A stretch of DNA of 64,000 nt, from the NCBI GenBank assembly GCA_004431415.1, contig QPMI01000033.1:13545-77544 (forward strand), in the 5' to 3' direction. This DNA is from Cyanophora paradoxa CCMP329. Taxonomy: Eukaryota; Plantae; Glaucophyta. Under the pieces are notes generated by a model that saw nothing but the letters and a program-made list of their open reading frames with translations, was not told the origin of the DNA and did not search any database. Below, piece by piece: positions 2,778 to 64,000 of the stretch (its first letter is position 1; each line of letters starts with the position of its first letter). The translations under genes and the position numbers were made by a program.

Positions 2778-2811
2778 TCCCTGGGTACCCGTACGAGCAT
2801 TTGAGCTGCAG

Positions 2812-3572: not shown

Positions 3573-3607
<35 letters not shown>

Positions 3608-42923: not shown

Positions 42924-43179
42924 CGCTTCGGCTCCCGTCCGTCAAGCGCCGGGGCAGTCGTTGACTCGATGCTGCAAAGCGAATGGGACAGGCTTGCTGC
43001 GATGGAAGCTTCTTCTGCGCTGCCTGCCGTTGTTCGAGCTTCCTCTCCTCTCCTGTTCTCCCTCCGCTTTGCTCCAATGCTCTTGTAGGGGGGGTACCGC
43101 TGAAGAAGGGGGCTACCGCTGTAAACCGTCCCCGCACCAGCTTCGCTCGTTGTTCATCGGCGTGGGTTCGGCGAGCAGC

Positions 43180-45267: not shown

Positions 45268-45655
45268 CCCCCGCGGCACCCGCGTCGGCGTCGGCGTCGC
45301 TCCCTGCAGCACTACTAGGCTACTAGGCTAGCTGGTGCAGCCTGTGCACGTGCCGAGATGAGATGGGCCGCTCGCAAATGTACATTCGATATGCATTCAT
45401 GGCCATGGCCGGCGCCGTGCGCGTGGCTCACGAGCATGCATAGTCAGTTTCGAATTCAGTGATCGATCGCGATGAGCGGGTTGCCTCCCAAGTTGGCGAG
45501 ATGCGAAAGCTTCAAGTTCTGAGTTCGAATTCTTTCGAAACGTTAATTATAACCCCCATGGCCGGGCGCCAGCTGCAGGCGATCACGTCCGGTCCGACGG
45601 TCATGATCATGCCATGATCATGATGCACACACTGTGATACGCCGGCGCCGCGGCG

Positions 45656-46669
45656 CCTATATAGGCTACGTACCACGCTACGAAACGCGCCTACTATGGA
45701 ATGTGGAATCTGCCTTCTGATGTATATTTTTGCAAGAATGCAAAGCATTTCGAGGGCGCGAATTGAGGGGATCTGCTCTAGAGTGAAGGTCCTGTATTCT
45801 GCAAGATGGCGAGCGCTCTGGAGGCTACAGTACGCGTCTTCGGGTGAACGGAGGCAATGCAGGCGGACAGGGGTCGGGGTCTCGGGAGGAAAGGGCTCGC
45901 GCTGGCGCGAGTCGATGCAAGTACGAGCACGGGCGGGGCGGCGCGGGGCAAAAAGAGGCGGGGAGAAGCGGGCTGCGTCAGCGGACCCAGGAGGGGACGG
46001 GCCGGCGCGGGGCGCGGGCGGATTGGCTCCAGTCCTCGCCCTCCCCCTCGCTCCCTTCGGCCTCGCCGCGGGAGCTCTCGCCGGGGGCCCCCGGCCCCGT
46101 CTGCGTCCCGATACCGGGCGCCGGCACCACCGTCACGCCCCCGACGGGCGACTCGGACACCGTCTCCCCCCCGGTGCCGCCGCGCCCCCGCCCGCCCTCC
46201 CGCCGCGCCCGTGACGCCCCGCAGACGGGGCCGGGGGCCCCCGGCGAGAGCTCCCGCGGCGAGGCCGAAGGGAGCGAGGGGGAGGGCGAGGACTGGAGCC
46301 AATCCGCCCGCGCCCCGCGCCGGCCCGTCCCCTCCTGGGTCCGCTGACGCAGCCCGCTTCTCCCCGCCTCTTTTTGCCCCGCGCCGCCCCGCCCGTGCTC
46401 GTACTTGCATCGACTCGCGCCAGCGCGAGCCCTTTCCTCCCGAGACCCCGACCCCTGTCCGCCTGCATTGCCTCCGTTCACCCGAAGACGCGTACTGTAG
46501 CCTCCAGAGCGCTCGCCATCTTGCAGAATACAGGACCTTCACTCTAGAGCAGATCCCCTCAATTCGCGCCCTCGAAATGCTTTGCATTCTTGCAAAAATA
46601 TACATCAGAAGGCAGATTCCACATTCCATAGTAGGCGCGTTTCGTAGCGTGGTACGTAGCCTATATAGG
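45656..46669. repeat. Perfect long inverted repeat: 450-bp arms (45656-46105, 46220-46669) with a 114-bp spacer
   Basis: The arms are reverse complements (the same ORF translation appears on both strands at 45696+ and 46629-). Both ends are the self-palindromic 10-mer CCTATATAGG. Confidence 0.95.
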
Positions 46670-46914
46670 TGGGCCTTTGTGAAGCGTTGAGCTCTCGAGC
46701 TTGCCCCTTCGCTGTCAATGCATTGTTAACCCTCGGAGGTTGCATGAGTCACGCGTCGCGGAGGTTTGGGTGTTATATTGCGATCAGGTACACGCTGCAC
46801 TAACAGGGGGGCTAGCACTAACCGACGCGGGGAGTAACAGCCGGTGTACCCCTCGGGGGGCCTCCCGGCCTCTAACGATGCTCAGGCTCTAACTGAATGC
46901 TGTACCCCCCGCTG

Positions 46915-47654
46915 TTACTGCCCGAACCTTCCGAACTTGCGTAATTCGGCCTCGCCCTGTACCCAGTGGCTGGTGTCGTCCATCCATTCGCGTACCTCCC
47001 TCTGACGCTTGAGTGACTCACGCTGCTCGGGGGTAGGGGAGGGGGGGCCTTCGAGGCGGGGTGGGGAAGGGGGTACGGTGGCAAAATTCAGCCACTCGGG
47101 GGTATGCCGAATTCGCCGTGAACGATCCTCTGCGGTGTGAAATACCGGTCGCTGCTCACGGCCAAGTGGAAGAACGCGCTCCTGAGCCCGGAGAGGAAGC
47201 GTGGTTGCATGAATGGCTGCTGGAGGGACTCGTCGCGCCAGGGGGCTACGAAATCAATGATACGCTGCTGTACCTGCGCGGGCAGGGCAAGGATCTGGCT
47301 CTTGCGGTTCGCAAAGGCCGTCCACAGCGCTTGCAGGTCGGCCCAATCGCCGTTCAGATCCCTGCGTTCGCGCCTCAGGTACGATCTCGGGTTCTCTGTC
47401 ATACCCATCAAGCCCGCGGCCCTGATCATCTCCCTGTCCGGGAGCTCTCGCTCGTCGTGGAATTCGTCTCTAATCCAGCGCACAAGGTAGAGCACGCGCT
47501 CCATGAAGTTCTCCGCCGGCGAGCCGCCCCCTGAGGACGTGCGCCTCCCCTCCAGCACTGCGTTCGCATCCTCCAAGTCCACGTTCCGCTGTCGAATCTC
47601 CCCGTCCAGGTCGCCGTTGTTGTACAGCACGTCGGACTCGCGTGTTCGCGCCAT
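46915..47654 (-). CDS. Viral-type hypothetical protein with F-box-like motif (paralog A); 1-nt frameshift in the C-run at ~47098-47102
   Basis: ORF 47088-47654 continues in another frame as EWLNF..GPPSPTPEQRESLKRQREVREWMDDTSHWVQGEAELRKFGRFGQ*, matching the C-terminus of paralog B. Confidence 0.75.
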
Positions 47655-47689
47655 GCTCGCGGCTCGGTGAGAATTTCTACCTGTACCCC

Positions 47690-48432
47690 CTACTCGCGGT
47701 CGGGGTATCGAGGGCCTGGCAGCCTCGCGCGCTTCCGCAGCTCGGCCTCGTCTGGCGACCAGCTCGTCGGATCATTGCTGTACTCCATCCACCTGCGAAT
47801 CTGACCCTCCCGCAGTATCTCTTGGCGCTGCTCCGCCGTGGGCGCCGGTGGGCCGTACGGTGGGCCGGCAGGCGTCAGTTTTCTATACTTGTATCTCTTG
47901 AACCGTTCTTCCATATTGTCTTGTTCTTCGTCCCATCCTTCAGGGATCAAATCCGATGGGGGGACATAGGGTACCACCCATTCATCTTCCTTGTTTTTGG
48001 CGTGGTGAACGAAGCCTTGGAAGTAGTGCTTCAAAATATTGAGCGGGCGATTGATGATCTCCGTGCGAGTGCCCGCATTCAGGAAGAGATCCAGTATAAC
48101 TCTCTGAACGTCTTGGGGCAGGTAGGTCATGGGGCTCTTGCGCGAGCCGAACGCCCACCAGAGCTTGCGAAGTTCATCGCGAACCCTGCCCATGTCGTCC
48201 CTGTGTTCGATTTCGTACACCGGCGGCTCATACGTTCGGATGTCTACCCTGGACCCGAGGCCTCTGCGTGCCACATCGCGCAAATACGTCGCAGCCATGC
48301 CCCGTCTCGCATTGTATTGGGGATCTCTTCTTTCACCCAGCCGATCAGCCCGTTTACCTGCTTAGTGTAATCTCGGATGTACCCCGATAGCGGTGGGAGG
48401 GTAGTCTGATTATCAGACATATGCATTCGCAC
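47690..48432 (-). CDS. Paralog B, copy 1 (1-nt homopolymer frameshift at ~48300)
   Basis: Identical to 51474-52217 except for one missing C (gcccc vs gccccc). Confidence 0.7.
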
Positions 48433-48470
48433 ACATCAAGAAATTCTAAACGCTACTGCGAGGCTAAGCT

Positions 48471-49136
48471 ATGCATACCGATACAGATTGCGAGACTTGC
48501 GAGAACTTACAACAGGGGAGCGCGGCGTGGCACGCGGCGCGCCGTGAAAAACTAACTGCATCTAATTTTGCGGCTGCGTGCGGTATAAACCCCTGGAAAT
48601 CCAGGGCCCGCCTGTGGGCGGAGCTAAGCGGGATAGCGGAGGAAAACAACTTTGACAACCCTGCCCTAACCTACGGGCATGACTATGAGCCCTTCGCGGT
48701 CTCTCTCTACAAAACGTTGAACAATAACGTGGACGTGCAACATACTGGATTGCACGAACATAAGGAACTGCCCTTCCTGGCGGGGAGCCCGGACGGGCTA
48801 ATCGGAAACGATCGCATACTCGAAATAAAATGTCCGTACAAACAAGAACTCTACGACAAGGTTCCTACCTATTACATGACGCAGCTGCAAGGACTTTTAG
48901 ACATAACGGGCCGCGAGTGGGCCGAACTTTTTTGCTTCACGCCTCTGCGCGTGCAAACGTGGTACGTCAGACGGGACGAGAGGTACATCGAGCTCATGCG
49001 GCGGTGCTTACATCTATTTTGGTCGCACGTGAAGGCTGGAACTCCGCCCGAGCCCTACAGCGATCGAATGAAGTCAGAGAACCTCAGCGAGGAGCAGGCG
49101 GCGCTGCGCGAGTTTAAGTCGTACGCCCTCCTCTAG
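48471..49136 (+). CDS. YqaJ-like / lambda-exonuclease family viral recombinase nuclease (copy 1)
   Basis: LQQGSAAWHAARREKLTASNF, YGHDYEP, PD-(D/E)xK core FLAGSPDGL..ILEIKCP, and YYMTQLQGLL. Confidence 0.92.
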   Translation: MHTDTDCETCENLQQGSAAWHAARREKLTASNFAAACGINPWKSRARLWAELSGIAEENNFDNPALTYGHDYEPFAVSLYKTLNNNVDVQHTGLHEHKELPFLAGSPDGLIGNDRILEIKCPYKQELYDKVPTYYMTQLQGLLDITGREWAELFCFTPLRVQTWYVRRDERYIELMRRCLHLFWSHVKAGTPPEPYSDRMKSENLSEEQAALREFKSYALL

Positions 49137-49714
49137 TGTCCCGACCCTCTCAGATATTAATTTAAAGATCTGGGAGGGTCGGGACACGTCTCTTGGTCAG
49201 ACTACTTATGTACGCCCTCCTCTAGTGTCTCGACCCTCTCAGATATTAATTTAAAGATCTGGGAGGGTCGGGACACGTCTCTTGGTCAGACTACTTATGT
49301 ACGCCCTCCCTCCTCTAGTGTCCGGACCTTTCCAATAATCTATAAAGAAAGTAGGGAGGGTCCGGACACGTCTCTTGGTCGGACTCACCGTAGCTTGGTG
49401 TAGCTCAGGCCCAGGCGGGGAAGGCGAGTCTGCAATGAATCAGACCCCACAGGATTTGGTTGAGCTGCTCTTTGCAGGGGGGCAGGAAGGCGGCCGCAGA
49501 GGGCTAGGGAGACTAGATCTAATTAGTAATCCCACACCGCGCATGTGCAAGCGACAGAGAACGAAGTGAGTAAATGCAGATCGATGATACGGCAATCATG
49601 AGTTGTTCAGAAAAGGTCGGGACACATAGAGAGTGCATGCCCTCACTCTCGTCCGCCCTCGCAATGTCCCGACCCTCCCAGATCTTTAAATTAATATCTC
49701 AAAAGGTCGAGACA
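49136..49714. repeat. Palindromic repeat cluster: three tandem ~89-93 bp units with 52-bp palindromes (49136-49187, 49225-49276, 49318-49369) plus an inverted copy (49665-49714)
   Basis: Core sequence GTGTCCCGACCCTCtCAGAT-attaatttaaag-ATCTGgGAGGGTCGGGACAC. Confidence 0.95.
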
Positions 49715-49815
49715 TTCATTGATCATATGCATGACGTCACTTGAATTCGCACGTTCGTATTTACACACTGGCACGCGCATCCCGTTCGCGAAGTCCACAC
49801 TGTGACATCCGACAA

Positions 49816-51427
49816 TCACACGCGCCTGTGAATGAGAGCATAGCAGTCGGAGAAAACGTTGTAAACCTCTGGGAAGCTTGGCGCCATGCCTGCCCTTGCC
49901 TGCTTAGCCTGGCGCTCTACTGCGTCGTCGAGCATGTCTTCCTCCCACGTGATGTAGCGTCGCTTTCGGCTGCCCATTTGCCCTCCGTCCGCGTCGGAGA
50001 AAGCGCGTCTCACTCCGAGGTACTTCTCCAGCAGGTACTTGATGACTTGCCAAGACTGCTGCGAGAGCCGCTTCTTCTCACCGTCCGCTGCATCGAAGCG
50101 GGGCGCGCGCTCGTCCAGACTCTGCAGAGCCGCGTACGCCTCCCGACCCTCCGGCGACGCCAGGGCCGCGTAGGCTTCGTCCGACCACAGAGCACGCCCG
50201 CGAGCTTTCCATACCCCCGCCAGCCGAAGAGTTTCTTGAACAGCGCGACGACCTTCGATACCTTGAGGCGCTCAGCAGTAGGCACGATCTCGGCAACGTC
50301 CGCGCCATGCTTCAGCACCAGCGTGACCACGGCAGTGAGCGGGATGGAGTAGAACGAATCCCACATCCAGGCGACGTCTCCTTCGGTCAGCTCGCTCGGA
50401 TCCTTGGCCAGGAACGCGGCGATCGACGTGCGAGCAAGCGAAGCAACCTTCTCGATGTCCAGCTTAGCGAGAGACTCGCGGGACTGCCTCCAGGCCAGCA
50501 CCGTGCTCCACAGATCGACGGGCTCCAGCGCGCCCGCCTCCAGCACGCTCCTGATCTCGCGCAGCCGCTGCTCCTTCTCCTGCTTCGGTCCGCTCGGGTT
50601 TTGATCCTCCGTGACTTGCACGTTCATCAGCGCGCAGGTCGACATCAGCCGCAGGCGCGCTGCCACTGCGAGGCGCCGAGTGGGCATGCCGGCGCGGCGG
50701 CTCCCGCGGTGGCTAGCCTTCAGGTCCAGGTAGCGCTGCATGTCGTCCGAGCTCTCGTCGTCGTCGCTCTCACGCCAGTGCGCAGCCGCCGCGCCGACCG
50801 CAACCGAGGGCGTCCGGTTCTTGCGCACGGCGACGAGCAGGTGCTCTCCGTCGGGCGTGCTGCGTTTGCGCAGCCTTCTGACTCGAAACAGCAGCTGCAC
50901 GATGTCGTCCGCCTCCAGCTGCGCGGGCTCTGCCTGGAACACGCCGTAGACCTTGTCAAAGTGCGCGTCCGAAAAGTCCACGCCTGCCCCGAGCGCGGAA
51001 GTTGCGATGAGCACGTCGCAGGCCTTGTACGCGCCCTCCTCAGACACATCGATCGACACGATGCGCACTGGGCCCTCGTTCGTGAAGCGCACGCTCTTCT
51101 CCTTGGCCTGCCCAACGATGAGCCCGATCGTGAACGGTGCGCCGCTGCCGTCCTCGGGCCCTGCCTCGAGCTGAGTCACGTACTGAGCGCCGCCCAGGCT
51201 GAGCTGCTCCAGCGCCTGCTTCGCAATCTTCTCCTGCATCTCGATCGCCTTGGCCGGCGTCTCTGCAATGATCATCGCCCGGCAGCGCCCCGGTCTGCAC
51301 AGCGCCATGATGTCCGCCTCGACGTGCGCCGGGCTGTCTGACACGCGCATCTTCCAGTCGCAGGTGCGATGCGAGTTGTACAGGAGCCCCAGGCGCGCCC
51401 CGACCTCCTGCGCCGACTCTGCCAGGT
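49816..51427 (-). pseudogene. 5'-truncated duplicate of the UL9-like helicase
   Basis: Identical to the 3' part of 53601-55213; cut at the duplication junction, so it lacks motifs I-III; an extra frameshift at ~50197. Confidence 0.85.
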
Positions 51428-51473
51428 GTTCGCGCCATGCTCGCGGCTCGGTGAGAATTTCTACCTGTACCCC

Positions 51474-52217
51474 CTACTCGCGGTCGGGGTATCGAGGGCC
51501 TGGCAGCCTCGCGCGCTTCCGCAGCTCGGCCTCGTCTGGCGACCAGCTCGTCGGATCATTGCTGTACTCCATCCACCTGCGAATCTGACCCTCCCGCAGT
51601 ATCTCTTGGCGCTGCTCCGCCGTGGGCGCCGGTGGGCCGTACGGTGGGCCGGCAGGCGTCAGTTTTCTATACTTGTATCTCTTGAACCGTTCTTCCATAT
51701 TGTCTTGTTCTTCGTCCCATCCTTCAGGGATCAAATCCGATGGGGGGACATAGGGTACCACCCATTCATCTTCCTTGTTTTTGGCGTGGTGAACGAAGCC
51801 TTGGAAGTAGTGCTTCAAAATATTGAGCGGGCGATTGATGATCTCCGTGCGAGTGCCCGCATTCAGGAAGAGATCCAGTATAACTCTCTGAACGTCTTGG
51901 GGCAGGTAGGTCATGGGGCTCTTGCGCGAGCCGAACGCCCACCAGAGCTTGCGAAGTTCATCGCGAACCCTGCCCATGTCGTCCCTGTGTTCGATTTCGT
52001 ACACCGGCGGCTCATACGTTCGGATGTCTACCCTGGACCCGAGGCCTCTGCGTGCCACATCGCGCAAATACGTCGCAGCCATGCCCCCGTCTCGCATTGT
52101 ATTGGGGATCTCTTCTTTCACCCAGCCGATCAGCCCGTTTACCTGCTTAGTGTAATCTCGGATGTACCCCGATAGCGGTGGGAGGGTAGTCTGATTATCA
52201 GACATATGCATTCGCAC
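51474..52217 (-). CDS. Viral-type hypothetical protein with F-box-like motif (paralog B, intact copy)
   Basis: Intronless ORF of 247 aa containing LRKLWWAFGSRKSPMTYLPQDVQRVILDLF. Confidence 0.8.
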   Translation of the reverse strand: MRMHMSDNQTTLPPLSGYIRDYTKQVNGLIGWVKEEIPNTMRDGGMAATYLRDVARRGLGSRVDIRTYEPPVYEIEHRDDMGRVRDELRKLWWAFGSRKSPMTYLPQDVQRVILDLFLNAGTRTEIINRPLNILKHYFQGFVHHAKNKEDEWVVPYVPPSDLIPEGWDEEQDNMEERFKRYKYRKLTPAGPPYGPPAPTAEQRQEILREGQIRRWMEYSNDPTSWSPDEAELRKRARLPGPRYPDRE

Positions 52218-52255
52218 ACATCAAGAAATTCTAAACGCTACTGCGAGGCTAAGCT

Positions 52256-52921
52256 ATGCATACCGATACAGATTGCGAGACTTGCGAGAACTTACAACAG
52301 GGGAGCGCGGCGTGGCACGCGGCGCGCCGTGAAAAACTAACTGCATCTAATTTTGCGGCTGCGTGCGGTATAAACCCCTGGAAATCCAGGGCCCGCCTGT
52401 GGGCGGAGCTAAGCGGGATAGCGGAGGAAAACAACTTTGACAACCCTGCCCTAACCTACGGGCATGACTATGAGCCCTTCGCGGTCTCTCTCTACAAAAC
52501 GTTGAACAATAACGTGGACGTGCAACATACTGGATTGCACGAACATAAGGAACTGCCCTTCCTGGCGGGGAGCCCGGACGGGCTAATCGGAAACGATCGC
52601 ATACTCGAAATAAAATGTCCGTACAAACAAGAACTCTACGACAAGGTTCCTACCTATTACATGACGCAGCTGCAAGGACTTTTAGACATAACGGGCCGCG
52701 AGTGGGCCGAACTTTTTTGCTTCACGCCTCTGCGCGTGCAAACGTGGTACGTCAGACGGGACGAGAGGTACATCGAGCTCATGCGGCGGTGCTTACATCT
52801 ATTTTGGTCGCACGTGAAGGCTGGAACTCCGCCCGAGCCCTACAGCGATCGAATGAAGTCAGAGAACCTCAGCGAGGAGCAGGCGGCGCTGCGCGAGTTT
52901 AAGTCGTACGCCCTCCTCTAG
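52256..52921 (+). CDS. YqaJ-like / lambda-exonuclease family nuclease (copy 2)
   Basis: Identical translation to 48471-49136. Confidence 0.92.
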   Translation: MHTDTDCETCENLQQGSAAWHAARREKLTASNFAAACGINPWKSRARLWAELSGIAEENNFDNPALTYGHDYEPFAVSLYKTLNNNVDVQHTGLHEHKELPFLAGSPDGLIGNDRILEIKCPYKQELYDKVPTYYMTQLQGLLDITGREWAELFCFTPLRVQTWYVRRDERYIELMRRCLHLFWSHVKAGTPPEPYSDRMKSENLSEEQAALREFKSYALL

Positions 52922-53499
52922 TGTCCCGACCCTCTCAGATATTAATTTAAAGATCTGGGAGGGTCGGGACACGTCTCTTGGTCAGACTACTTATGTACGC
53001 CCTCCTCTAGTGTCTCGACCCTCTCAGATATTAATTTAAAGATCTGGGAGGGTCGGGACACGTCTCTTGGTCAGACTACTTATGTACGCCCTCCCTCCTC
53101 TAGTGTCCGGACCTTTCCAATAATCTATAAAGAAAGTAGGGAGGGTCCGGACACGTCTCTTGGTCGGACTCACCGTAGCTTGGTGTAGCTCAGGCCCAGG
53201 CGGGGAAGGCGAGTCTGCAATGAATCAGACCCCACAGGATTTGGTTGAGCTGCTCTTTGCAGGGGGGCAGGAAGGCGGCCGCAGAGGGCTAGGGAGACTA
53301 GATCTAATTAGTAATCCCACACCGCGCATGTGCAAGCGACAGAGAACGAAGTGAGTAAATGCAGATCGATGATACGGCAATCATGAGTTGTTCAGAAAAG
53401 GTCGGGACACATAGAGAGTGCATGCCCTCACTCTCGTCCGCCCTCGCAATGTCCCGACCCTCCCAGATCTTTAAATTAATATCTCAAAAGGTCGAGACA
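52921..53499. repeat. Second copy of the palindromic repeat cluster (52921-52972, 53010-53061, 53103-53154; inverted copy 53450-53499)
   Basis: Part of the 3.78-kb duplication. Confidence 0.95.
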
Positions 53500-53600
53500 T
53501 TCATTGATCATATGCATGACGTCACTTGAATTCGCACGTTCGTATTTACACACTGGCACGCGCATCCCGTTCGCGAAGTCCACACTGTGACATCCGACAA

Positions 53601-56600
53601 TCACACGCGCCTGTGAATGAGAGCATAGCAGTCGGAGAAAACGTTGTAAACCTCTGGGAAGCTTGGCGCCATGCCTGCCCTTGCCTGCTTAGCCTGGCGC
53701 TCTACTGCGTCGTCGAGCATGTCTTCCTCCCACGTGATGTAGCGTCGCTTTCGGCTGCCCATTTGCCCTCCGTCCGCGTCGGAGAAAGCGCGTCTCACTC
53801 CGAGGTACTTCTCCAGCAGGTACTTGATGACTTGCCAAGACTGCTGCGAGAGCCGCTTCTTCTCACCGTCCGCTGCATCGAAGCGGGGCGCGCGCTCGTC
53901 CAGACTCTGCAGAGCCGCGTACGCCTCCCGACCCTCCGGCGACGCCAGGGCCGCGTAGGCTTCGTCCGACCACAGAGCACGCCCCGCGAGCTTTCCATAC
54001 CCCCGCCAGCCGAAGAGTTTCTTGAACAGCGCGACGACCTTCGATACCTTGAGGCGCTCAGCAGTAGGCACGATCTCGGCAACGTCCGCGCCATGCTTCA
54101 GCACCAGCGTGACCACGGCAGTGAGCGGGATGGAGTAGAACGAATCCCACATCCAGGCGACGTCTCCTTCGGTCAGCTCGCTCGGATCCTTGGCCAGGAA
54201 CGCGGCGATCGACGTGCGAGCAAGCGAAGCAACCTTCTCGATGTCCAGCTTAGCGAGAGACTCGCGGGACTGCCTCCAGGCCAGCACCGTGCTCCACAGA
54301 TCGACGGGCTCCAGCGCGCCCGCCTCCAGCACGCTCCTGATCTCGCGCAGCCGCTGCTCCTTCTCCTGCTTCGGTCCGCTCGGGTTTTGATCCTCCGTGA
54401 CTTGCACGTTCATCAGCGCGCAGGTCGACATCAGCCGCAGGCGCGCTGCCACTGCGAGGCGCCGAGTGGGCATGCCGGCGCGGCGGCTCCCGCGGTGGCT
54501 AGCCTTCAGGTCCAGGTAGCGCTGCATGTCGTCCGAGCTCTCGTCGTCGTCGCTCTCACGCCAGTGCGCAGCCGCCGCGCCGACCGCAACCGAGGGCGTC
54601 CGGTTCTTGCGCACGGCGACGAGCAGGTGCTCTCCGTCGGGCGTGCTGCGTTTGCGCAGCCTTCTGACTCGAAACAGCAGCTGCACGATGTCGTCCGCCT
54701 CCAGCTGCGCGGGCTCTGCCTGGAACACGCCGTAGACCTTGTCAAAGTGCGCGTCCGAAAAGTCCACGCCTGCCCCGAGCGCGGAAGTTGCGATGAGCAC
54801 GTCGCAGGCCTTGTACGCGCCCTCCTCAGACACATCGATCGACACGATGCGCACTGGGCCCTCGTTCGTGAAGCGCACGCTCTTCTCCTTGGCCTGCCCA
54901 ACGATGAGCCCGATCGTGAACGGTGCGCCGCTGCCGTCCTCGGGCCCTGCCTCGAGCTGAGTCACGTACTGAGCGCCGCCCAGGCTGAGCTGCTCCAGCG
55001 CCTGCTTCGCAATCTTCTCCTGCATCTCGATCGCCTTGGCCGGCGTCTCTGCAATGATCATCGCCCGGCAGCGCCCCGGTCTGCACAGCGCCATGATGTC
55101 CGCCTCGACGTGCGCCGGGCTGTCTGACACGCGCATCTTCCAGTCGCAGGTGCGATGCGAGTTGTACAGGAGCCCCAGGCGCGCCCCGACCTCCTGCGCC
55201 GACTCTGCCAGGTACGCGAGATCGACCGACCGAACGAAGCCGTCCATCGCCACGATGCGCGATGCCTTCATCACGCCGCGCCATAGGCCCACGCAGCGCG
55301 CGTTTCGAGGCACTGACCGCATACCTAGGTGCAGGCCGGTGGGCTCGAGGGTGCCGCTCGAGGTGAGGTGCTTCGTGAGGGAGGAGAGCTCGTCCAGCAC
55401 GACCAGTAGCGGCGCCGTCGACCAGCCCTCCCAGTCCTCGAGCACCTTGTGCAGCGAGTCCCATGTGATGACGACGCACCTGCACTCCTCATGGCGGAAG
55501 CCCCACTTGCCATGCGATCCCTTTGAGCTCTCCGGTGGCTTCTTGATGTCCATGTAAAGCACGGCGTCCTTTGACAACTCCGCAGCATCAATGCGACGCT
55601 TGAGGTCGCGGGAGAAGGCCCGGCGGCAAGTCACGAGGATCACTCGCCAGCCGCCTGCAAGGGCCGGGTCCAGGTACGCATCGATCAGCGCCTGCGTCTT
55701 CCCCGTGTTGAGTCCCGAGCAGATGACGTCGACCTGCGGCTGAGCGGATCTCGGGTTCTGCTCCAGCGCCCCGAATGCGGAGGTAAGGATCTTGCACGAG
55801 AGGTGGCGTTCATCCACTGCATTGACGCAAGCCTCCAGGCCCGTCGACTCGAGCGCGATCAGGAGGGAGGGGAGGGCAATGTCGAAGGCGACAGGCTGCG
55901 AGGGATCGGTCACATAGCGGGTCTGTGCCACGCTGCCCGACTCCCCTCCGGTCCCTCCCCCTCGAGCTCGACTTCAATACCGTGCGCCTGGATGGAGATT
56001 CGAGCCGCCGGCGCCCCGGCTGACTCCCGCCCAGGACGAGGGTGATGGACCCGTCGGGCTCGACTCCAAGGTGCTGAACGCGGCGGGCGTCGTGCAGGCC
56101 AAGGTCCGCGCGCAGCTCTGCCCCCGCCTTCCAGATCTCGTCCCTCACCGCCTTGTTCTTGCGTAGGCGGTCCAGGAGCCGCTCCAAGGCCGGCAGGCTT
56201 GGGCTCGAATCCAGGAGAGCGCCCGGCTCCGGGATGGGCTTAGCGCGGGGCGCCGAGCTTCTGGATGGAGTGGGGAGGAGCTCCGCTCGCGGCCCGGGCG
56301 CCGGCCCCCGCAGAACGTAGCCCCCGGTGCCATCCACACCGAGCTCCAGGCCGCTCGAGCTCCCAAAGAACCATGCCATGAGATCGCAAGCCTCCGGGCT
56401 CTGTAGGACGTAGGCAGCCTTGAATCCATTATCCAAGGGGCGAGAGAAAGTGAAGCCTCCGAACTTGGTTGCAAAGGCGCAGGCTGCCGCAGTGCTCGTC
56501 TCATCCTCGGCACCCGAGAAGTGGCTGGGGGTGATGCAGGGCGGGTGGAAGACGCAGAAAGCCGTCCCCAGGGTCGGGCTGCAGGCCTTCTGGACTTCGA

Positions 56601-56722
56601 CGAGAGGGAATCGAACGAAAAAGCTGCACTCCTGCTCGCTCAGATCTATCTGCTGTACCCCGGGCCCGGGCATACGGGCCAGGAAGGCGTCGACGTCGAG
56701 AGACACGCGTCCGGTTGCCATG
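53601..56722 (-). CDS. Origin-binding-protein (herpes UL9-like) SF2 helicase, probably fused to an N-terminal Prim-Pol-like domain across two homopolymer frameshifts
   Basis: UL9-type motifs SGLNTGKT, VILVTCRRAF, VITWDSLHKV, VVLDELSSL, IVAMDG, DVLIATSALGAGVDFSDAHFD and QLLFRVRRL in ORF 53601-55931. The upstream ORF from ATG 56722 joins if one G is restored in each of two G-runs (~56027, ~55945). Confidence 0.85.
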
Positions 56723-56811
56723 GTCGTCTCTCTATAGCTAGGCTTGGAAAATTCTAGATCTACTAGGCTAGTCAACGTCTGTTGGCTAGCTATAGTCGAC
56801 GTCTGGACTGC

Positions 56812-56947
56812 TGTCTCGACCTTCTGAGATATTAATTTAAAGATCTGGGAGGGTCGGGACAGGCTCTGGTCCGTCTGGATCCGGACTGCTCAGCGGCTGT
56901 CTCGACCTTCTGAGATATTAATTTAAAGATCTGGGAGGGTCGGGACA
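56812..56947. repeat. Two further 50-bp palindromic repeats (56812-56861, 56898-56947) upstream of the helicase gene
   Basis: TGTCTCGACCTTCTGAGATATTAATTTAAAGATCTGGGAGGGTCGGGACA twice with an 86-bp period; the reverse complement of 53450-53499 with one mismatch. Confidence 0.95.
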
Positions 56948-58091
56948 GGCTTTGGTCCGACCTTAAGCGCTCAACTAGACCCGGTTGACACCGTCTTGAT
57001 CTCTCCTTCTTGGCGCAGCGGACGATGTGACGCGCAGACCGTCGGCCCGGCGGACGGGGAGGCGCGCGCGTAGAACTTCGGAAGCGCTAGCCCCTTGCTT
57101 GACCGAAGCTTAGAAAGTTTTGAGCGCACGTGAATGCGACACGTGTAGAGAGAAGGCAGAGCGCGCCGGAGCTAGCTTGCGCGGCCGAGCGCTCGACCGC
57201 CTTTGCTCCTAAGCTCAGAAAGTTTTGGGCTCACGCGGTTGCTCCACGTGTTTCGACTCAAAACACAGTACCCCAACCCGAAAAAAAGCGCCCGGGCAGC
57301 GCATCTCGCAGCGCCCGGGCCCAGCGCTCCTTGCAGCACTTGCCAGAGGCACTAGCTTGCATTCCGCTCAGCCCGGAGAGCCGCCGCCTCGCTCCTTTCG
57401 ATTCGGAGGTGCGCCTCACTTCGCAACCTCTTTCTCCGCACCACGGCTAGCTCCGGACCTCAGATTTTGGGCGCTGGAAAGCTCTCTCGACGCCGCACTC
57501 ACGCCGCCACGCGCAGGGTCGCTCGCGCCGGCCGCGGACCTTCGAAAGCTCGATGGCGCCCGAGCCGGAGCACTCCGCCGCATCCCGCAGGTGCCAGCTC
57601 GCTCTCTTGCCGCTCTATCCCTTGCATTTAGCACCTAGAACATGCCCCGCAACCTCGCGCTCGATTCGCCCGCGTCCGCTGACATTTGGTCTCTGAGCAG
57701 GTGCCGAGATTGGCCGCCGCGCCTTCCGCAACTCGAGCCGACGTTCGCGGCGACTTGCGCACGCTTCTAGATCTCGTTCTCAAGCCCGCGCATCGATTCG
57801 GCGGCTCCGGCTCGCCTCCCCGCGCCTCCAGCCCCGCGCCCCACACCCGTTCTTGTCCTAGCTAAGCCCTCCCTTGTCCGCGGCCAGTCGCGGGCTACGC
57901 GCATCGCGGATAGCATCAGTGGAGCTACGTTTCAGCGCTGGACGCAGGCCCGCCCGCCCAATCCTCCCACCTCCCGCTCGCAGCACGCTCACTGGGCCGC
58001 AGGCAGCTTCGCGGGGAGCCGCTGGATTCGAAGCCGCGCACCTTCCCCGCCCGTCCCGACGTCGTACGCGCTAACGTCGCCCGCGCCGCAG

Positions 58092-59247
58092 GTGGCCGCC
58101 AGGCCTCCTGCATCCAGGCCTTCGAGCCGGTGTGGCTGCGGGAGAAGCGCCTCGCCTTCTGGCAGGAGACGGCCTCCTGTCCCCTCACCCGCTTCATCAT
58201 CGCCCACTGCGCCGTCGACCCCACCACCTACGTCGCCGCCCCGAACACGGAGGGCTACATGACGAGCGTCGCGGGCATCGTCGAGTACATCGCGCGCACG
58301 GAGGGCCCCGACACCTCCGCCGCCGTCGGCGCCGACATCGAGAACGGCCGGCTGGACGAGACCCTCGCCGGCTTCGGCTCCTGGTGCCGCCCCTACTCCT
58401 ACAAGCTCGGCGGCGTCTGGCAGACCTACATCCGCGGCATCGTCCCCAAGGCCCCGCTCTCCCTCGGCGAGAGCCAGCCGGCGCTGGAGGCGATCGCGAT
58501 CCCCGTCGCCCAGTTCAAGGACCCGGCGCCCGACGTCGGGCCCTTCCTCGTCAAGCCCCACACCAAGGGCAAGGGCAAGCGCACCCGCAACTCGGCGCCG
58601 GCCTTCCTCCCGCCCCAGCCCCCCGCCACGGCCCCCCAGCAGCGCCCCGGCCAGCAGCGCATCGACGAGATGCTGCCGCGCCAGGTCCGGCCCCGCGTAC
58701 CCCCCGCCTTCCCTCCCGTACCCCCCCTCCCCCCGCCCCCCTCCTGATCCAAGGGCAGGGTACCCCGACGAACGGCGGCGCGGGCCCGAGCGGCTACGGG
58801 AGCTCGGCCTCCTCCGCGAGCGCCGACGGCCCCAGCCCCCTCCCCGGCCCCGGCGCCGTCCTCACCGCGATCCAGGGCTTCGGGGCCCAGCAGGAGGCCG
58901 AGCGGCGGGCGCTGGCGGCGCGCCAGGCGCGCGAGGCGGAGGAGCGGCGCCAGGCCCTCTGGGCCCAGCGCCTGCAGGCCACCATCGCCTTCCGCGCCGA
59001 GCTGGACTCCGGCTTCCGCGCGGCCAGATCGCCGGGGCGGAGGCCTCGGAGCGCTGGCGGGCGTTCGAGGCGGAGTCGGCGGGGCTGGCGAAGGGCCTCG
59101 GCTACAGCTACCGGCGCGTGCCCGTGCTCAAGACTACGCGTCGGCCGCGGCGCGGGAGGCCTCGCGGGCGAGATCGACGCGGCGGAGGAGCAGGCGGCGC
59201 GCGAGGAGGCCGAGGACAACGCGCGCTTCCGGCACCTGCACCACTGA
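58092..59247 (+). CDS. Hypothetical protein (Pro-rich middle, coiled-coil C-terminus); probable frameshifts near 58740 and 59035; 5' exons possible
   Basis: Strong GC3 codon bias in 58092-58740 and 58750-59247; a CTAAC...CGCAG acceptor at 58071-58091. Confidence 0.6.
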
Positions 59248-59295
59248 GGCCCGAGGCGGTATTTTTTCTCAACCCTCCCTCAATTCGGTCCCGCG

Positions 59296-59484
59296 ATGGC
59301 CTTCGAAGCTTATCCTGCCCACTACTCGCTAGGAGCGCTGGCCGCGACCCTCACCTGGCTCCTCGGCGGCACCCCCACGGCCTCGGCGGTCATAGGCGTG
59401 GGCTTCGGCTACGCCGCCAAGTCCCTCTACGCCCCCGGCGGCGCCTCGCAGGCGGCGGCCGGCATGCGCCCCGCCGGGCGCTAA
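59296..59484 (+). CDS. Small hydrophobic (two-TM) protein
   Basis: 62 aa with YSLGALAATLTWLLG and AVIGVGFGYAA; GC3-biased codons; T-rich upstream motif. Confidence 0.65.
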   Translation: MAFEAYPAHYSLGALAATLTWLLGGTPTASAVIGVGFGYAAKSLYAPGGASQAAAGMRPAGR

Positions 59485-59579
59485 CTTTTCAAAGTTCATT
59501 CTCCCCTCCCCCTTTTCCGAGTTCCGAGTCCGTTGGCGTTCCCTTTTAAATTTTCTTCATTCTCGTTACACGTTCGAAG

Positions 59580-60059
59580 ATGTCGAGCGCGGTAGAGAAG
59601 CTGCTGTGCACCGTGTTCAAATCGGATTCGCGATGCAGCAAGATCGGCGAGGCGGCGAGGGCTAAGGGTGGGGCGGCGGCGGAGGGGCCCAGGGTGAGGG
59701 CGGCGGATCCCGCGCCGCCGTCGCTGAAAACGATCAAGGGGGCGGGCAAGGGCAGGAGCGTGGGGGCGCTGCCCCTCGTGGCGATCGCGCCGGGGCAGAG
59801 GGAGGCGGCGCACGCGGCGACGGCGGCGCTGGCCGCGCGGCGCCAGGCGGAGGCCTACCCGTGCCTGGGCCGGGGGCTGCACCCGCCGGCCGGCCGCCCC
59901 TACGCCGTGAGCGCCTACTTCGACGAGGCCAACCGGCTGAGCTGCCAGGAGCTGTGCGACAACCGCATGCGGCGCGCCGTGGACGGGCACCTGCCGCTGC
60001 TGGTGGCGCTGGGCGGCTCGCTCCTGATGGTCTGGTACCTGCGCGGCCTGGTCATTTAG
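59580..60059 (+). CDS. Cys-containing protein with C-terminal membrane anchor
   Basis: 159 aa; C-terminal LPLLVALGGSLLMVWYL. Confidence 0.7.
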   Translation: MSSAVEKLLCTVFKSDSRCSKIGEAARAKGGAAAEGPRVRAADPAPPSLKTIKGAGKGRSVGALPLVAIAPGQREAAHAATAALAARRQAEAYPCLGRGLHPPAGRPYAVSAYFDEANRLSCQELCDNRMRRAVDGHLPLLVALGGSLLMVWYLRGLVI

Positions 60060-60096
60060 ATAGTTTTTCGAAACCCCGGTTGGAAGCTAGCCAAGG

Positions 60097-60422
60097 ATGA
60101 GCTGGCTCGATGCGCTGCTCACGAAGACCTTCGGCCCCAAGGGCCAGCCGCGCCTGCAGTTCGGCGAGATCAACGCGGCGATTGGCGCCACGGTGGAGAC
60201 GAAGAACCGAGAGAACGTCCTGCGCGGCGACGGAGGCGCGTGGGCCGACATTGCGGCGGGCGCCCTGGGCTCCGCGCTCACCGCACCGGGCAAGGCGGGC
60301 CGCGCGCTGACGGACGGGCCGAGCGCTTCTGGCACTGGCTCAAGGTGGCCGTTGTCATCGCCGCAGCGGTTGTGGCGGGTCTCCTGGTGCTCGAGGCTCG
60401 CGCGCTATTTTCTAAACGCTAG
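60097..60422 (+). CDS. Small protein with C-terminal TM (probable 1-nt frameshift near 60320)
   Basis: The frame MSWLDALLTKTFG.. is followed in another frame by FWHWLKVAVVIAAAVVAGLLVLEARALFSKR*. Confidence 0.6.
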
Positions 60423-60438
60423 GTAAACCGAGCGAACC

Positions 60439-60813
60439 ATGCGCGGCGGCTCTTCCCCCCGTGTTTCCTTCGCTGAGAACCCGGTGGCGAACGCAGTCGC
60501 CCCTACCCCCCTGGAGCCCGGAGTGAAGCTGGAGCGTGCGAACGCAGTCTCCGTCAAGAAGGCCAAGCGCACGCTGGCGCTGGAAGTCCCGGTCGCGGAG
60601 GATACGGAGAAGGTTGCATTCAACAAGCGCAAGACGTACAAGGCGATACGCGAGGGACAGCTGCTGCCCACGGACTCGGTTCCCGGGCTGCCGGGCACCA
60701 CGGCCGGCGAGCTCCTAGTGCGCAACCTGCGCCTGCAGTACGTCTCCCGCCTCCGCCGCTCCAAGGCCAAGAAGGCGCGCCTGGACTCGGGCGATAGCAG
60801 CTCTAGCTCGTAG
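60439..60813 (+). CDS. Basic hypothetical protein
   Basis: 124 aa, GC3-biased and Lys/Arg-rich, with TTTTCTAA upstream. Confidence 0.6.
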   Translation: MRGGSSPRVSFAENPVANAVAPTPLEPGVKLERANAVSVKKAKRTLALEVPVAEDTEKVAFNKRKTYKAIREGQLLPTDSVPGLPGTTAGELLVRNLRLQYVSRLRRSKAKKARLDSGDSSSSS

Positions 60814-60928
60814 GGCTCTGTACTGTTGTATTCAATGCCTTTACCAGTTCCTGTTCCTATCCCAGAGCACGACTCGGGTGAAGGCACGGTCATAGCGAAC
60901 ATGAACTCGGCGAACTTGGCAAAGTTCA

Positions 60929-61122
60929 TCAGGGTTCCCAGGCGGGGATCCTCCAGTAGATCGCCTCGCGCAGCGCCTCGTAGACGCGCATGAGGGAGCG
61001 CTCGTTCTCCGTCGCGAAGGCGTCGCCGGGCTCGTCGGGTCGGGATCCGTGAGCTCGGAGTACTCGTCCGAGCTGCCCGCGCTCTCGGCACCTGCGGCGG
61101 GGTCGGGCGAGGGGTCGGGCAT
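60929..61122 (-). CDS. Small acidic protein (probable 1-nt frameshift at ~61038)
   Basis: MPDPSPDPAAGAESAGSSDEYSELTDPD|PDEPGDAFATENERSLMRVYEALREAIYWRIPAWEP*. Confidence 0.45.
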
Positions 61123-61170
61123 TCTTTGCTGGTAGAAGGGCTAGAAGAGGGACCAGAAAATCACTAGCAA

Positions 61171-61512
61171 TCACGGGCGCCGGAACTCCATCGAGTCGCC
61201 GCGCCAGTACTTGTTGCCGGAGGCGAGCAGCTTCATCGGCTCGCCCGTCGAATCGTGCTTCCAGGCCTCGCCGTCCCAGAGGGCCGTGCCGCCGTCCTCT
61301 AGCTTGAGGCGGTGGCCCGGCTCGAGACGGTTGCCGTCGAGCATGCGGCCGGCCATGAGCGCCAGGTCCCACTCGGTGAGGTTGCGCTGCTCTGCGGGGG
61401 TGAGGCCGCGCTCGACGCGCTCGGGCTGGCGCGCCTCGCGCTCCATGCGGCTGAGGCCCACCAGGAAGAAGATGGGCAGGGCAAAGGCCATGAGATCTAG
61501 CAGGGCCTCCAT
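61171..61512 (-). CDS. Small protein with N-terminal TM
   Basis: MEALLDLMAFALPIFFLVGL followed by a Trp-rich domain (ALWDGEAWKHDSTG..KYWRG). Confidence 0.7.
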   Translation of the reverse strand: MEALLDLMAFALPIFFLVGLSRMEREARQPERVERGLTPAEQRNLTEWDLALMAGRMLDGNRLEPGHRLKLEDGGTALWDGEAWKHDSTGEPMKLLASGNKYWRGDSMEFRRP

Positions 61513-61522
61513 TGGGCAAGAC

Positions 61523-61810
61523 TTAGAAAAGGTTCCGGACCAGGCCCGAGAGCTGCGGGCCCAGGCGCCGGGCGGCGTAGTAGAGCGCGGCCGCCGCCGC
61601 CGCAAGGATCAGCAGGCGCGGCGGGCCGCGCGCCGGCTCCTCCAGCGTCAGGTCCACGGTCTCCGGCCCGCGCGCCGGAGCCGCCAGGATCTCGGGCTCG
61701 GAGCAGAGGGACTTGGGCCCACGGCGGCGGCGCTGCTTGGGCGCCGAGGCGGCGGCGGTGAGAAGGTCCTCAGGCTCCTGCTTGATACCTGCGCAGTCAG
61801 TAAAGTCCAT
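61523..61810 (-). CDS. Small protein with C-terminal TM
   Basis: MDFTDCAGIKQEPED..KQRRRR..TVDLT..LLILAAAAAALYYAA. Confidence 0.65.
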   Translation of the reverse strand: MDFTDCAGIKQEPEDLLTAAASAPKQRRRRGPKSLCSEPEILAAPARGPETVDLTLEEPARGPPRLLILAAAAAALYYAARRLGPQLSGLVRNLF

Positions 61811-62718
61811 GCTTGCTGGGTACCTTGGAAAATTGTGGGAGGCGTCCGGAGATTGCGAACGTAGGAGGGGGGAGAAATGACGCGGACGCAAAAGATTCCG
61901 TCATGGGTTTTCCGTCATGGGCTGGAACTTGGACTCGGGACTCGGCCGGGAATTCTCCTGGTAAGTTCGAGACTTGAACTCGGCGGGTACCCCCTATGTC
62001 CAAATGCCCTAGTGTCCCAGAGTCCTAGTGTCCTAGTGTCCTAGTAGTACTAAGTAGTACTAAGTAGGTGGTATCGATATCTAGCTAGCTAGCGCTAGCG
62101 CTTGCTTAATTAATTACCTGAAAGGTTGCGGAGGTTGCGGACGCGTCACAATTCCGTCATGGGTTTTCCGTCATGGGCTGGAACTTGGACTCGGGACTCG
62201 GCCGGAATTCTCCTGGTAAGTTCGAGACTTGAACAAGAACGACGTACCCCTCCTATGACCGTTCTATACTACATTAAAGTATTCATTGATTGTGAATAAC
62301 GATAATGTCATAGCAACTTCAGTATGATGTCATAGCAACTTGAAATTACCTTCAAGTCGAATAGAGGGGTACAGAGTCGGTACGTTAGACTTGACAAAAA
62401 CACGTGTATTTTTTTACGCCGAGTTTTGCGGCCGAGTCCCGAGTCCAAGTTCCAGCCCATGACGGAAAACCCATGACGGAATTGTGACGCGTCCGCAACC
62501 TCCGCAACCTTTCAGGTAAATGTCAGGTAACTTCAGGTTAATTAATTAAGCAAGCGCTAGCAAGCACTAGCTAGATATCACAGCTCTACCTTGCCCAAGT
62601 TGATGGTATCTAGCAAGGCCTGCTCCTCCAAGTCTGCACCACCACCGCCTCCCAGCGCTAGCGCTAGCTCGATACCGCTCCGGCCTTGATCTCCCTTGGC
62701 TCCAGCCACCTGAGAGGC

Positions 62719-63006
62719 TCAGGCCACCTCCTCCTGGTGAAGCCGGTATCGGTTGCTCTTGTCCAGCTTGAGGTAGCGGTAGGGCGCCGGCGCCGGCCAG
62801 TCCGGCCTGTGGCCGCTTGCCTCCTTGGCTATGTCCTTGGGCCTACGCGGTCGCAGGTCCGCCTTGGCCTTCGCCCTCTGCAGGGGGCCCAGCGCCTTGA
62901 ACTTCGGTGCCTTGGTCGCCGGCAGGGCCTTGGGCTGGGGCTTCTGGGGCTTCTGCATCTTCACCGCCTTGGGCTTCGGCATCCTTGGCTGCTTCGATTT
63001 CGGCAT
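62719..63006 (-). CDS. Lys/Pro-rich basic protein (possible DNA-condensing protein), overlapping the adjacent ORF
   Basis: 95 aa MPKSKQPRMPKPKAVKMQKPQKPQPK..; almost all codons end in G or C. Confidence 0.5.
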   Translation of the reverse strand: MPKSKQPRMPKPKAVKMQKPQKPQPKALPATKAPKFKALGPLQRAKAKADLRPRRPKDIAKEASGHRPDWPAPAPYRYLKLDKSNRYRLHQEEVA

Positions 63007-63246
63007 ACTTCTTGCTCATAAATGAGAAAAGCGCCTCAAAGTCTGCCTTTATCTCCTCCTTGGACCAGGATGTCATCTGATCCGGGTCACCTGAGAACGG
63101 CGCATCGAACGCCACGTGGAGCGATTTGCAGCCTGGGCAATCATTGGCTCGGGCCATGCCAGCTCGATCAGCTGAAGGTAAGATGTTGAGGGCCTTGTCG
63201 AGCTTGGCCGCCCTGGGAGACCAGCTGGGAGATGGCGGGCTCCATG
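62843..63246 (-). CDS. Hypothetical protein with CxxC and acidic tail (probable 1-nt frameshift at ~63213)
   Basis: MEPAISQLVSQ|AAKLDKALNIL..NDCPGCKSLH..WSKEEIKADFEALFSFMSKKY. Confidence 0.5.
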
Positions 63247-63440
63247 GTGGGTAGACTAGCATCAGAAAATGGCGCCAAGTTCGAATCTATTTTTTTACCG
63301 GGAGAGTTTGGGCCCGAGTCCCAGGTCCAAGTTCCAGCCCATGACGGAAAAACCCATGACGGAATCTTTCGCGTCCGCGTCACTTCTCCCCCCCCCCCTC
63401 CTCAGGTGAGCGCTCACCTGAACCTCACCTGAACGGCCTC

Positions 63441-63446
63441 TATAAG
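63441..63446 (+). promoter_or_regulatory. TATA-like box (TATAAG) upstream of the ORF at 63508
   Basis: An isolated TATAAG in GC-rich context, followed ~25-35 nt later by a pyrimidine-rich CA-containing tract and then the ATG. Confidence 0.35.
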
Positions 63447-63507
63447 CACGCGGCACGCGGCGTTCCCCTCACACTCTCAATCTCTCTCAACGCAACCAGC
63501 AAGCAAC

Positions 63508-63833
63508 ATGGCCCTTGTTGCCCAGTTCTTCGTCGAGGAATACACCGTGCGCGTGATCGGCGAGCCCATTGACCGCGAGGTGGAAGTTCTCAAGGACGGC
63601 AAAGTAGACGACTGCAAGGACTGCCCGGTAAGATCCTCCTCATGAAGCTCTCCGACGATGGCTTCTCCTTCACCCTGGTCTCCTGCGCCAAGACCCAAAC
63701 CGGACAGACGGCCTACATCGTGACCTTTCTCCGCGGGGCGCCTGAACTGCACGCATGTTCAAGTACCCGAGTGGGCCTCGTTCTGCGCGGCGATCTCTCC
63801 CTCAGGCCGCTCCCTCGCCTACACATTCTTTGA
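63508..63833 (+). CDS. Hypothetical protein (probable frameshift at ~63625; 3' end uncertain)
   Basis: MALVAQFFVEEYTVRVIGEPIDREVEVLKDGKVDDCKDCP|GKILLMKLSDDGFSFTLVSCAK..; GC3-biased codons. Confidence 0.55.
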
Positions 63834-64000
63834 GGGGTATCAGTGCACATCTGGGTCTTGCGGAGGCAGATGGGCTCCCCCCAGATGAAGGTCGATCAGC
63901 TGCACCAGCAGTGCGGCTACCCTTTAGCCTTGACGATAGGATGATTTCCTTTGATCTTGATGGCTCTGTATCCCTCTGAAATTGAACGCGTGTTTTCTGA

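Follow-up and report, generated by a model that had tools for sequence, protein, structure and literature searches.

A multicopy family of integrated virus-like replicons with a UL9-like helicase in Cyanophora paradoxa

What is the compact, orphan-rich DNA that follows a housekeeping gene on contig QPMI01000033.1 of the glaucophyte alga Cyanophora paradoxa CCMP329 (assembly GCA_004431415.1)? We analysed 64,000 nt of that contig (positions 13,545 to 77,544, forward strand; hereafter the window, numbered from its first letter), the right-hand part of which had been read in an initial annotation, made from the letters alone, as an integrated virus or virus-derived replicon of a poorly described lineage. 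Our data show that this part is one copy of an undescribed family of integrated virus-like replicons that is multicopy in the alga. As to its nature, we lean, with slightly more confidence than doubt, towards an integrated copy of what is likely a small DNA virus replicating in the nucleus, from a lineage not yet described, repressed by antisense RNA and with a capsid gene that is either out of sight or not recognised. A literature search, made mostly outside subscription papers and over part of the supplements and figures, found no description of the family.

46670..64000, no strand assigned: multicopy virus-like element, left edge at about 46670-46720, right end beyond the window

The family character of the element comes from gene models of the host. 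A search with the helicase returned 10 clusters with 27 members, all from EukProt, and every named member looked up was from Cyanophora paradoxa. Copies of 11 genes (helicase, A, YqaJ, E, H, I, J, K, L, M and N) were found in at least 117 gene models that form at least 55 groups, a group being accessions no more than 10 apart, which serves as a proxy for one locus and makes the counts lower bounds. Two or more different genes occur together in 29 groups, and the gene order of the window is kept in 27 of these, the two exceptions having internal duplications. One host genome therefore holds the element at many loci with conserved order, as is characteristic of endogenous elements. The helicases fall into subfamilies of >90, 75-78, 67 and 50-55% identity that retain their reading frames and have the same neighbours, so the family seems to have been diversifying for long in the Cyanophora lineage. 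HMMER over 1.84 billion representatives gave 6 matches. Four are Cyanophora models, one is a 138-aa fragment whose source is not stated, and the last, a long repeat protein, was discarded as a repeat artefact. An apparent circular permutation between copies was also dropped, as the 94-aa cluster members proved to be gene K and not M.

Short-read data were used as contigs, those of two DNA-type runs and of two of the six RNA-type runs holding the sequence being aligned to 45240-58650. Library types are not on record; the two RNA-type runs, which carry different study codes, were taken as RNA by guess, and their spliced joints support this. The left edge of the element is placed by contig depth, which rises from hundreds to thousands in the bin 46584-47031, and by syntenic copies elsewhere. 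GC content falls from 71.3% in positions 1-45655 to 62.2% in the element, so the drop that the initial annotation reported holds overall; it is patchy, with 64.7% already in host-side 42000-45655 and 70.5% in the element's own 58091-61810. The boundary is marked more clearly by host G/C-run pentamers, which number 7-69 per 2 kb left of 46 kb and drop to 2-10 in seven of the eight bins from 48 kb. After discounting a tandem duplication, which had been overlooked, the element has 15 genes. Only the YqaJ nuclease and the UL9-like helicase are recognisable, as was noticed before, and 13 are orphans, close to the dozen first counted. Significant Pfam matches among the first 24 frames were confined to these two (PF09588, E 1e-29; Herpes_ori_bp, PF02399, E 1e-8), 40 further frames gave none, and Rfam and tRNA scans were equally empty. 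The earlier description of compact, mostly intronless frames stands as far as compactness goes; introns are present in an RNA antisense to the helicase and probably in gene E/F. The core of the element is arranged as follows.

47088..47654, - strand: gene A, 188 aa, orphan, paralogue of gene B; copy in EukProt; unspliced RNA-run contig 46691-47671
47642..51427, no strand assigned: tandem duplication, first copy, 3,786 nt, containing gene B and the helicase 3' part (each one base short), YqaJ and four palindromes
51474..52211, - strand: gene B, 245 aa, orphan
52256..52921, + strand: YqaJ / lambda-exonuclease-family nuclease, 221 aa; above cut-off for TIGR03033; identical copy at 48471-49136
52922..53153, no strand assigned: three tandem 50-bp palindromes (52922, 53011, 53104) with a period of 89-93 nt; candidate origin
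53450..53499, no strand assigned: fourth 50-bp palindrome, in inverted orientation, shortly past the helicase stop; 38 nt further on, the antisense RNA contig starts
53537..56856 (at least), + strand: spliced antisense RNA with at least 11 introns; joints in RNA-run contigs, at depth 0 in both DNA runs
53601..56721, - strand: UL9-like SF2 helicase, about 1,040 aa, 34.1 bits to PF02399 against a cut-off of 20; predicted origin-binding initiator
56812..56947, no strand assigned: two 50-bp palindromes (56812, 56898), upstream of the helicase start

The helicase is split in the window. Two single-base insertions near 55.95-56.01 kb in the main contigs of both DNA runs restore one frame of 1,041 codons which, together with single-protein paralogues, argues for one gene interrupted in the window by two single-base gaps. 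SF2 motifs I, Ia, II, V and VI (GxNTGKT, TCRRAF, LDE, TSALGAGVDF, QLLFRVR) are present when the protein is aligned with UL9 and CyRepA1. UL9 was the only credible match in a PDB sequence search (E 0.0013, 20 bits with the family profile), and a divergent paralogue scores 17.2 bits to PF02399, below the cut-off. The top Foldseek rows, obtained with a low-confidence model (pLDDT 45), were herpes UL9, origin-binding proteins of the mimivirus group and a cyanophage helicase, while in VIA SF2-type domains were tied at Z 9-10.5, with UL9 of herpes simplex virus (HSV) among them and giving the longest alignment. For the N-terminal ∼300 aa there was no usable Atlas match and no Foldseek match at E<=0.001 in BFVD or PDB. 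The model of this region (pLDDT 52) was closest in VIA to an unrelated small alpha/beta domain (Z 5.7), and its similarity to the C-terminal part of a herpes helicase-primase chain (Z 4.0, rank 38) is a lead only; an AEP fold was not recognised in it, which at this model confidence does not imply absence. From motifs and profiles the protein is predicted to be an origin-binding initiator.

All six palindromes lie around the helicase and are confined to the helicase/YqaJ module, four of them being repeated in the duplicate. They have GC-rich arms and an A/T-only centre, with hairpin z of -3.4 to -8.7 for the four that were folded (-8.7 and -5.3 within the 52922-53153 group), and the third tandem palindrome (53104) carries symmetric changes in both arms. 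The pattern has no exact match in IMG/VR. As six AT-centred palindromes flank the helicase, an initiator/origin pair is the likely replication engine, and the layout suggests that the palindromes might be origins for the helicase. In HSV oriS, two UL9 boxes surround an 18-bp AT-rich spacer that melts (PMC13261067). Like that system, the element combines a UL9-family helicase with inverted GC-rich boxes around an AT-rich spacer. HSV also has a lambda-family exonuclease, UL12, alongside UL9. The differences are that the profile link to UL9 is 20 bits, that six palindromes stand against one oriS type, that the element sits at many loci, and that ICP8, family B or other polymerase, terminase, portal and HK97 capsid were not seen in its visible part. 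Judged from genes and layout, it may work like a UL9/oriS replicon.

The YqaJ protein looks intact, its family score and the motifs SPDG, ExKCP and Q (invariant in 11 aligned sequences) predicting nuclease activity; its PDB matches are exonucleases. Fetching loci through YqaJ gave 52 (25-48% best-segment identity), none with a relative of the other 15 queries; they are thus generic YqaJ carriers. Separately, a 1,912-nt contig from ENA (P0092) encodes a YqaJ 65% identical to that of the element, other outside matches being at 42% or less, and is a possible environmental relative. Genes A and B are 30% identical over 105 aa (E 2e-6) and have in common a segment which we take to resemble an F-box motif (LP..v...I..f) and which has no Pfam match; gene B gave no Pfam, NCBIfam, PHROG or useful PDB match. 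A third variant, 36% identical, stands at another locus (P0023), so the A/B slot may hold variable cargo.

The RNA over the helicase is on the other strand. All 11 helicase joints listed read GT..AG on the + strand and none reads CT..AC (chance about 1.2% each); ten do so as reported, one of these moved from the duplicate copy, and one after a 4-base slide. With the helicase on the - strand, the RNA is antisense to it. Ten introns are 49-65 nt long and one 117 nt; host genes carry 9.2 introns on average, with a mean length of 86 bp (PMC6704402). A G at donor position +5 occurs in 9 of 11 against 31% of all GT (P 8e-4). Sense-strand helicase RNA was not seen in the RNA-run contigs, which cannot show absence. 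A protein-coding overlapping gene on the + strand was rejected, the longest ATG frame of the spliced model, with at least one intron missing, being 119 aa. The simplest reading is cryptic splicing of a non-coding transcript. The antisense RNA may nevertheless restrain the helicase gene: the host's methylation of repeats and viral genes (PMC12344493) and abundant exonic small RNAs (PMC3700990), as these sources report, make silencing of the element plausible. Further along, 56918-58091 has high depth and several host-type donor/acceptor sites, and an RNA-run contig ends at 57406 just before a donor-like site; + strand RNA may continue past this point and splice towards gene E.

The right arm consists of the following small genes and a second repeat family.

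58091..59247, + strand: gene E/F, orphan, with globular N-terminal part, Pro-rich linker and coiled-coil-like end; 5' end uncertain
59296-59484, + strand: gene G, orphan
59580-60059, + strand: gene H, EukProt copies; hydrophobic segments
60097-about 60424, + strand: gene I, frameshifted in the window; EukProt copies; hydrophobic segments
60439-60813, + strand: gene J, EukProt copies
60841-61122, - strand: gene K, frameshifted in the window; at least 21 gene models
61171-61512, - strand: gene L, N-terminal hydrophobic segment; at least 25 gene models
61523-61810, - strand: gene M, at least 7 gene models
61864..63396, no strand assigned: second repeat family, four copies of 54-100 nt, two inverted pairs around genes N and O
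62581-63006, - strand: gene N, Lys/Pro-rich, frameshifted in the window; at least 7 gene models
start 63262, - strand: gene O, orphan
63508..63833, + strand: gene P, orphan, two overlapping short frames; element membership assumed from position

Genes E to P have no family, PDB or confident Atlas match. Gene E has 6 relatives, all in EukProt, and Atlas scores of at most 0.86, some to ADP-ribosyltransferase-like families, which we treat as a lead only; gene P gave no Pfam match and was absent by exact look-up. Of 14 starts, 13 are preceded within 40 nt by a T-rich motif, compared with 29 of 276 other ATGs; the significance of this difference is inflated because the motif was picked after the starts were seen. 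The repeats contain CCGTCATGGG doublets, and the motif GGAGGTTGC occurs once more at the left edge (46735) and never in 1-45655. To judge from their sequences, the small hydrophobic and basic proteins would suit a virion module.

We can picture the element, as the small virus that we favour, in the following way. Dimers of the helicase would bind to both GC-rich arms and open the AT centre between them, in the manner of UL9 at oriS; since no polymerase or primase is visible, synthesis is proposed to fall to those of the host. YqaJ would resect ends for recombination-dependent replication, and recombination driven by it would account for integration without an integrase and for the recurring internal duplications. 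The small right-arm proteins would be virion parts, the capsid gene lying beyond 64 kb or being too diverged to recognise. Antisense RNA, spliced at cryptic sites by the short-intron machinery of the host, would repress the initiator and keep the copies quiet. According to the parts of the sources consulted, UL9-like helicases do occur in some polinton-like viruses (PLVs; PMC12220804), in mriyaviruses (PMC11253617) and in an ariadnavirus (10.64898/2026.08.29.747986).

Several observations weigh against a virus of this kind. The hallmark scans covered ∼13.5 kb of unique sequence, and no capsid, packaging ATPase or integrase was found in the visible part of the element (Pfam on 24 and 40 frames, NCBIfam and PHROGs on 17 window frames each), which agrees with what was first reported; protease and polymerase were not detected there either. 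More specifically, the visible frames held no double-jelly-roll major capsid protein by general profiles, a set without PLV-specific capsids and applied with the orphans unfolded; Pfam gave no A32-like packaging ATPase in 64 frames, the right end of the element lying outside the window; and neither an rve integrase nor a tyrosine recombinase was seen in the visible part; nor does the window contain an inverted counterpart of the left edge, as terminal inverted repeats would require. In the copies, few gene models separate YqaJ from N (8 accessions in group 25120-25127, for example), an interval without room for a large capsid module, and the compact order conserved across copies argues against a large genome. 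Relatives of the helicase outside Cyanophora were not found in IMG/VR, JGI metagenomes, GTDB or GenBank phages, and with none in the first three no free virus is on record. The antisense part of the picture is affected too: although five introns occur in both RNA runs, others are retained in one, as expected of functionless cryptic splicing, and the antisense strand has only a mild excess of donor-acceptor pairs (19 against 11.7 +/- 2.8 in synonymous shuffles, P 0.011, one of 12 statistics). The depth of element contigs, 16-64x that of the flank contig (both DNA runs, four matched places), speaks for a multicopy family in being of the same order as the 55 groups; it is not a copy number, and the libraries may have been enriched.

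The lack of virion hallmarks would be natural for a capsid-less replicon, that is, an integrated plasmid- or transpoviron-like element with its own initiator and YqaJ recombination, possibly descended from a CyRepA1 plasmid or carried by a giant virus. CyRepA1 (NF042913) is the best-scoring family of the helicase (56.1 bits, E 3e-15) and the sole kind of plasmid match, all 62 plasmid records with a weak match being cyanobacterial. An alignment with two CyRepA1 proteins (20-21%) brings the helicase motifs and a C-terminal R..Y stretch into register. CyRepA1, of about 1,000 aa and with the same helicase motifs, acts as an essential Rep of its plasmid, and antisense RNA to an upstream gene is involved in copy control (PMC9978351, as far as consulted). 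However, the score is far below the family cut-off of 200, the best tblastn match has E 3e-4, the N-terminal domain is a different one, without a match to DUF3854/Toprim, and the element resides in a eukaryotic nucleus. The antisense RNAs differ as well: that of CyRepA1 plasmids targets a small gene upstream of rep (PMC9978351), whereas that of the element covers the helicase itself and is spliced. Moreover, Foldseek places herpes and mimivirus-group proteins as high as the cyanophage helicase, and the right end of the element, outside the window, could not enter the count of hallmarks. Small membrane-type and basic proteins in a row are also more typical of virions. We therefore consider a capsid-less replicon possible but doubtful, and it is just as tentative that the family is a new class of eukaryotic mobile DNA, devoid of capsid, integrase and polymerase, with a herpes-like initiator/origin, exonuclease-driven spread and antisense self-limitation.

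If the element is viral, it is not readily placed among known groups. PLVs are likewise integrated, multicopy and about 15-40 kb long in protist genomes, and some carry PF02399 (15 of 34 streptophyte, 9 of 1,393 rhizarian, 3 of 89 ochrophyte and 2 of 126 chlorophyte elements, and 0 of 156 glaucophyte ones by the column counts of PMC12220804 Table S6). They have a capsid, A32 ATPase, rve/YR integrase and terminal inverted repeats, none of which was seen in the visible part of the element, and YqaJ is absent from the text and searched supplements of PMC12220804. Mriyaviricetes (Yaraviridae with SF2_hel) and 'Ariadnavirales' are small, polymerase-less, presumably nuclear relatives of giant viruses and share with the element a UL9-like SF2 helicase with an N-terminal domain; a PD-(D/E)XK or YqaJ nuclease is present too (PMC11253617 and 10.64898/2026.08.29.747986, both consulted in part). 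In contrast, their SF2 helicases keep an intact AEP domain, and mriyaviruses and an ariadnavirus carry capsid and transcription-factor genes (same sources), whereas major capsid protein, ATPase, VLTF2/3, RuvC and HUH endonuclease were not detected in the visible part of the element. The earlier reading as an integrated virus or virus-derived replicon is thus strengthened by the multicopy syntenic family, the host-type spliced RNA and a host flank at single depth, while the suggested PLV-like, mirusvirus-like or small nucleocytoplasmic large DNA virus-like affiliation has found no support so far, hallmarks of these groups being absent from the visible part.

Could the stretch be a dead piece of a larger endogenous giant virus or PLV, spread passively by host duplication or a transposon? 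Giant-virus insertions (PMC12344493) and PLVs (PMC12220804) are reported in Cyanophora paradoxa, and the former resemble our element in having viral-type genes clustered in the host genome; neither a helicase nor YqaJ nor a multicopy family of 15 genes is named in the text of PMC12344493, figure loci aside. Nucleocytoviricota commonly carry YqaJ and UL9-like genes, and the window copy does have frameshifts and a duplication. But most checkable frameshifts of the window are absent from short-read contigs, the four helicase subfamilies keep frames and neighbours down to 50% identity, and the compact 15-gene order comes with no other giant-virus gene, which makes passive spread of a dead fragment rather improbable. 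The duplication itself (47642-51427 and 51426-55213) is 99.947% identical with two 1-nt gaps and a 2-nt overlap at the join, and gives the window two copies each of YqaJ, gene B and the 3' part of the helicase; the contig pieces listed contain no bridge over the join. Internal duplications around YqaJ and helicase were also noted at two other loci, EukProt groups 21073-21085 and 6079-6082, one of which repeats the layout YqaJ / B+helicase / YqaJ of the window.

The place of integration was examined on the host side.

43180..45267, + strand: PRS (ribose-phosphate pyrophosphokinase), host flank, intron-rich; Pfam Pribosyltran_N and Pribosyltran on pieces; start approximate
45656..46669, no strand assigned: low-copy foldback insert with 450-nt perfect inverted arms and CCTATATAGG at both ends

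The left 45 kb is intron-rich host DNA, in which Pfam matches on 10 of 13 pieces identify syntaxin, PRS, histidine kinases and an F-box gene; PRS, named at the outset, is borne out. In each DNA run a single contig (depth 110 and 99) holds the PRS 3' flank and extends into the palindrome, by 30 and 32 nt. Of the junction for which reads had been wanted, the step from flank to palindrome is thus bridged in two runs, and that from palindrome to element is absent among the contig pieces listed. The palindrome had been considered as a hairpin end of the element, which is ruled out by depth: its contigs have 126-267 against 99-110 for the flank and 1,700-6,700 for the element, so it is low-copy and not a terminus. 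It is likely a separate, transposon-like insert. Two contigs cross the right arm into the spacer unbroken, one of them extending 703 nt into sequence absent from the examined stretch; the palindrome may be a longer foldback transposon shortened in assembly. Another contig carries a different 125-nt flank at the outer end of the palindrome. Both arms end in the same 10-mer, and both DNA runs have a joint 45611>46662, weakly, with a short side of only 20 letters; these two observations hint that the flanks of the palindrome were once contiguous, and adjacency of the element to PRS is probable.

The lack of the inner palindrome junction and the element join among the contig pieces listed, the unbroken crossing of the inner arm boundary and an element/flank depth ratio that differs 1.3-2.4-fold between the two DNA runs speak for a co-cultured virus or contaminant mis-joined to host contigs at the palindrome. 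Against this, the copies are on many different contigs and in diverged subfamilies, element RNA has host-type spliceosomal introns, 14 DNA-type runs hold 0.90-0.92 of the words of 44000-53999, and the shared 10-mer and joint speak, if weakly, for contiguity; contamination appears very improbable. A local mis-join at the PRS side alone is unlikely, and with copies at many loci it would leave the family unaffected. Elsewhere on the host side we noticed a duplication of ∼5 kb at 97% identity (16225-21372 and 25171-30432, ∼9 kb apart) covering hybrid histidine-kinase genes, a repeat of 15123-16228 at 21869-22984 (98%) and a direct repeat of 153 nt (1539-1691 and 2045-2197, 93% identity).

The family bears on how such elements are looked for. 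A screen of protist endogenous DNA viruses started from capsid genes, with Cyanophora paradoxa in its supplements (PMC10120064, consulted in part); given capsid-first screens and dozens of copies in a much-studied algal genome, yet no helicase in the glaucophyte PLV set, this class of elements may be slipping through. Should the capsid-less class prove true, a culturable alga would harbour a living link between the CyRepA1 plasmids of cyanobacteria and the UL9 replicons of herpesviruses or giant viruses. In either case, Cyanophora offers a small culturable system in which to ask whether UL9-like helicases outside herpesviruses are origin-binding initiators, with candidate origins adjoining the gene. 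It also raises the questions of how integration proceeds without a visible integrase and whether an intron-dense host may silence foreign DNA via spliced antisense transcripts.

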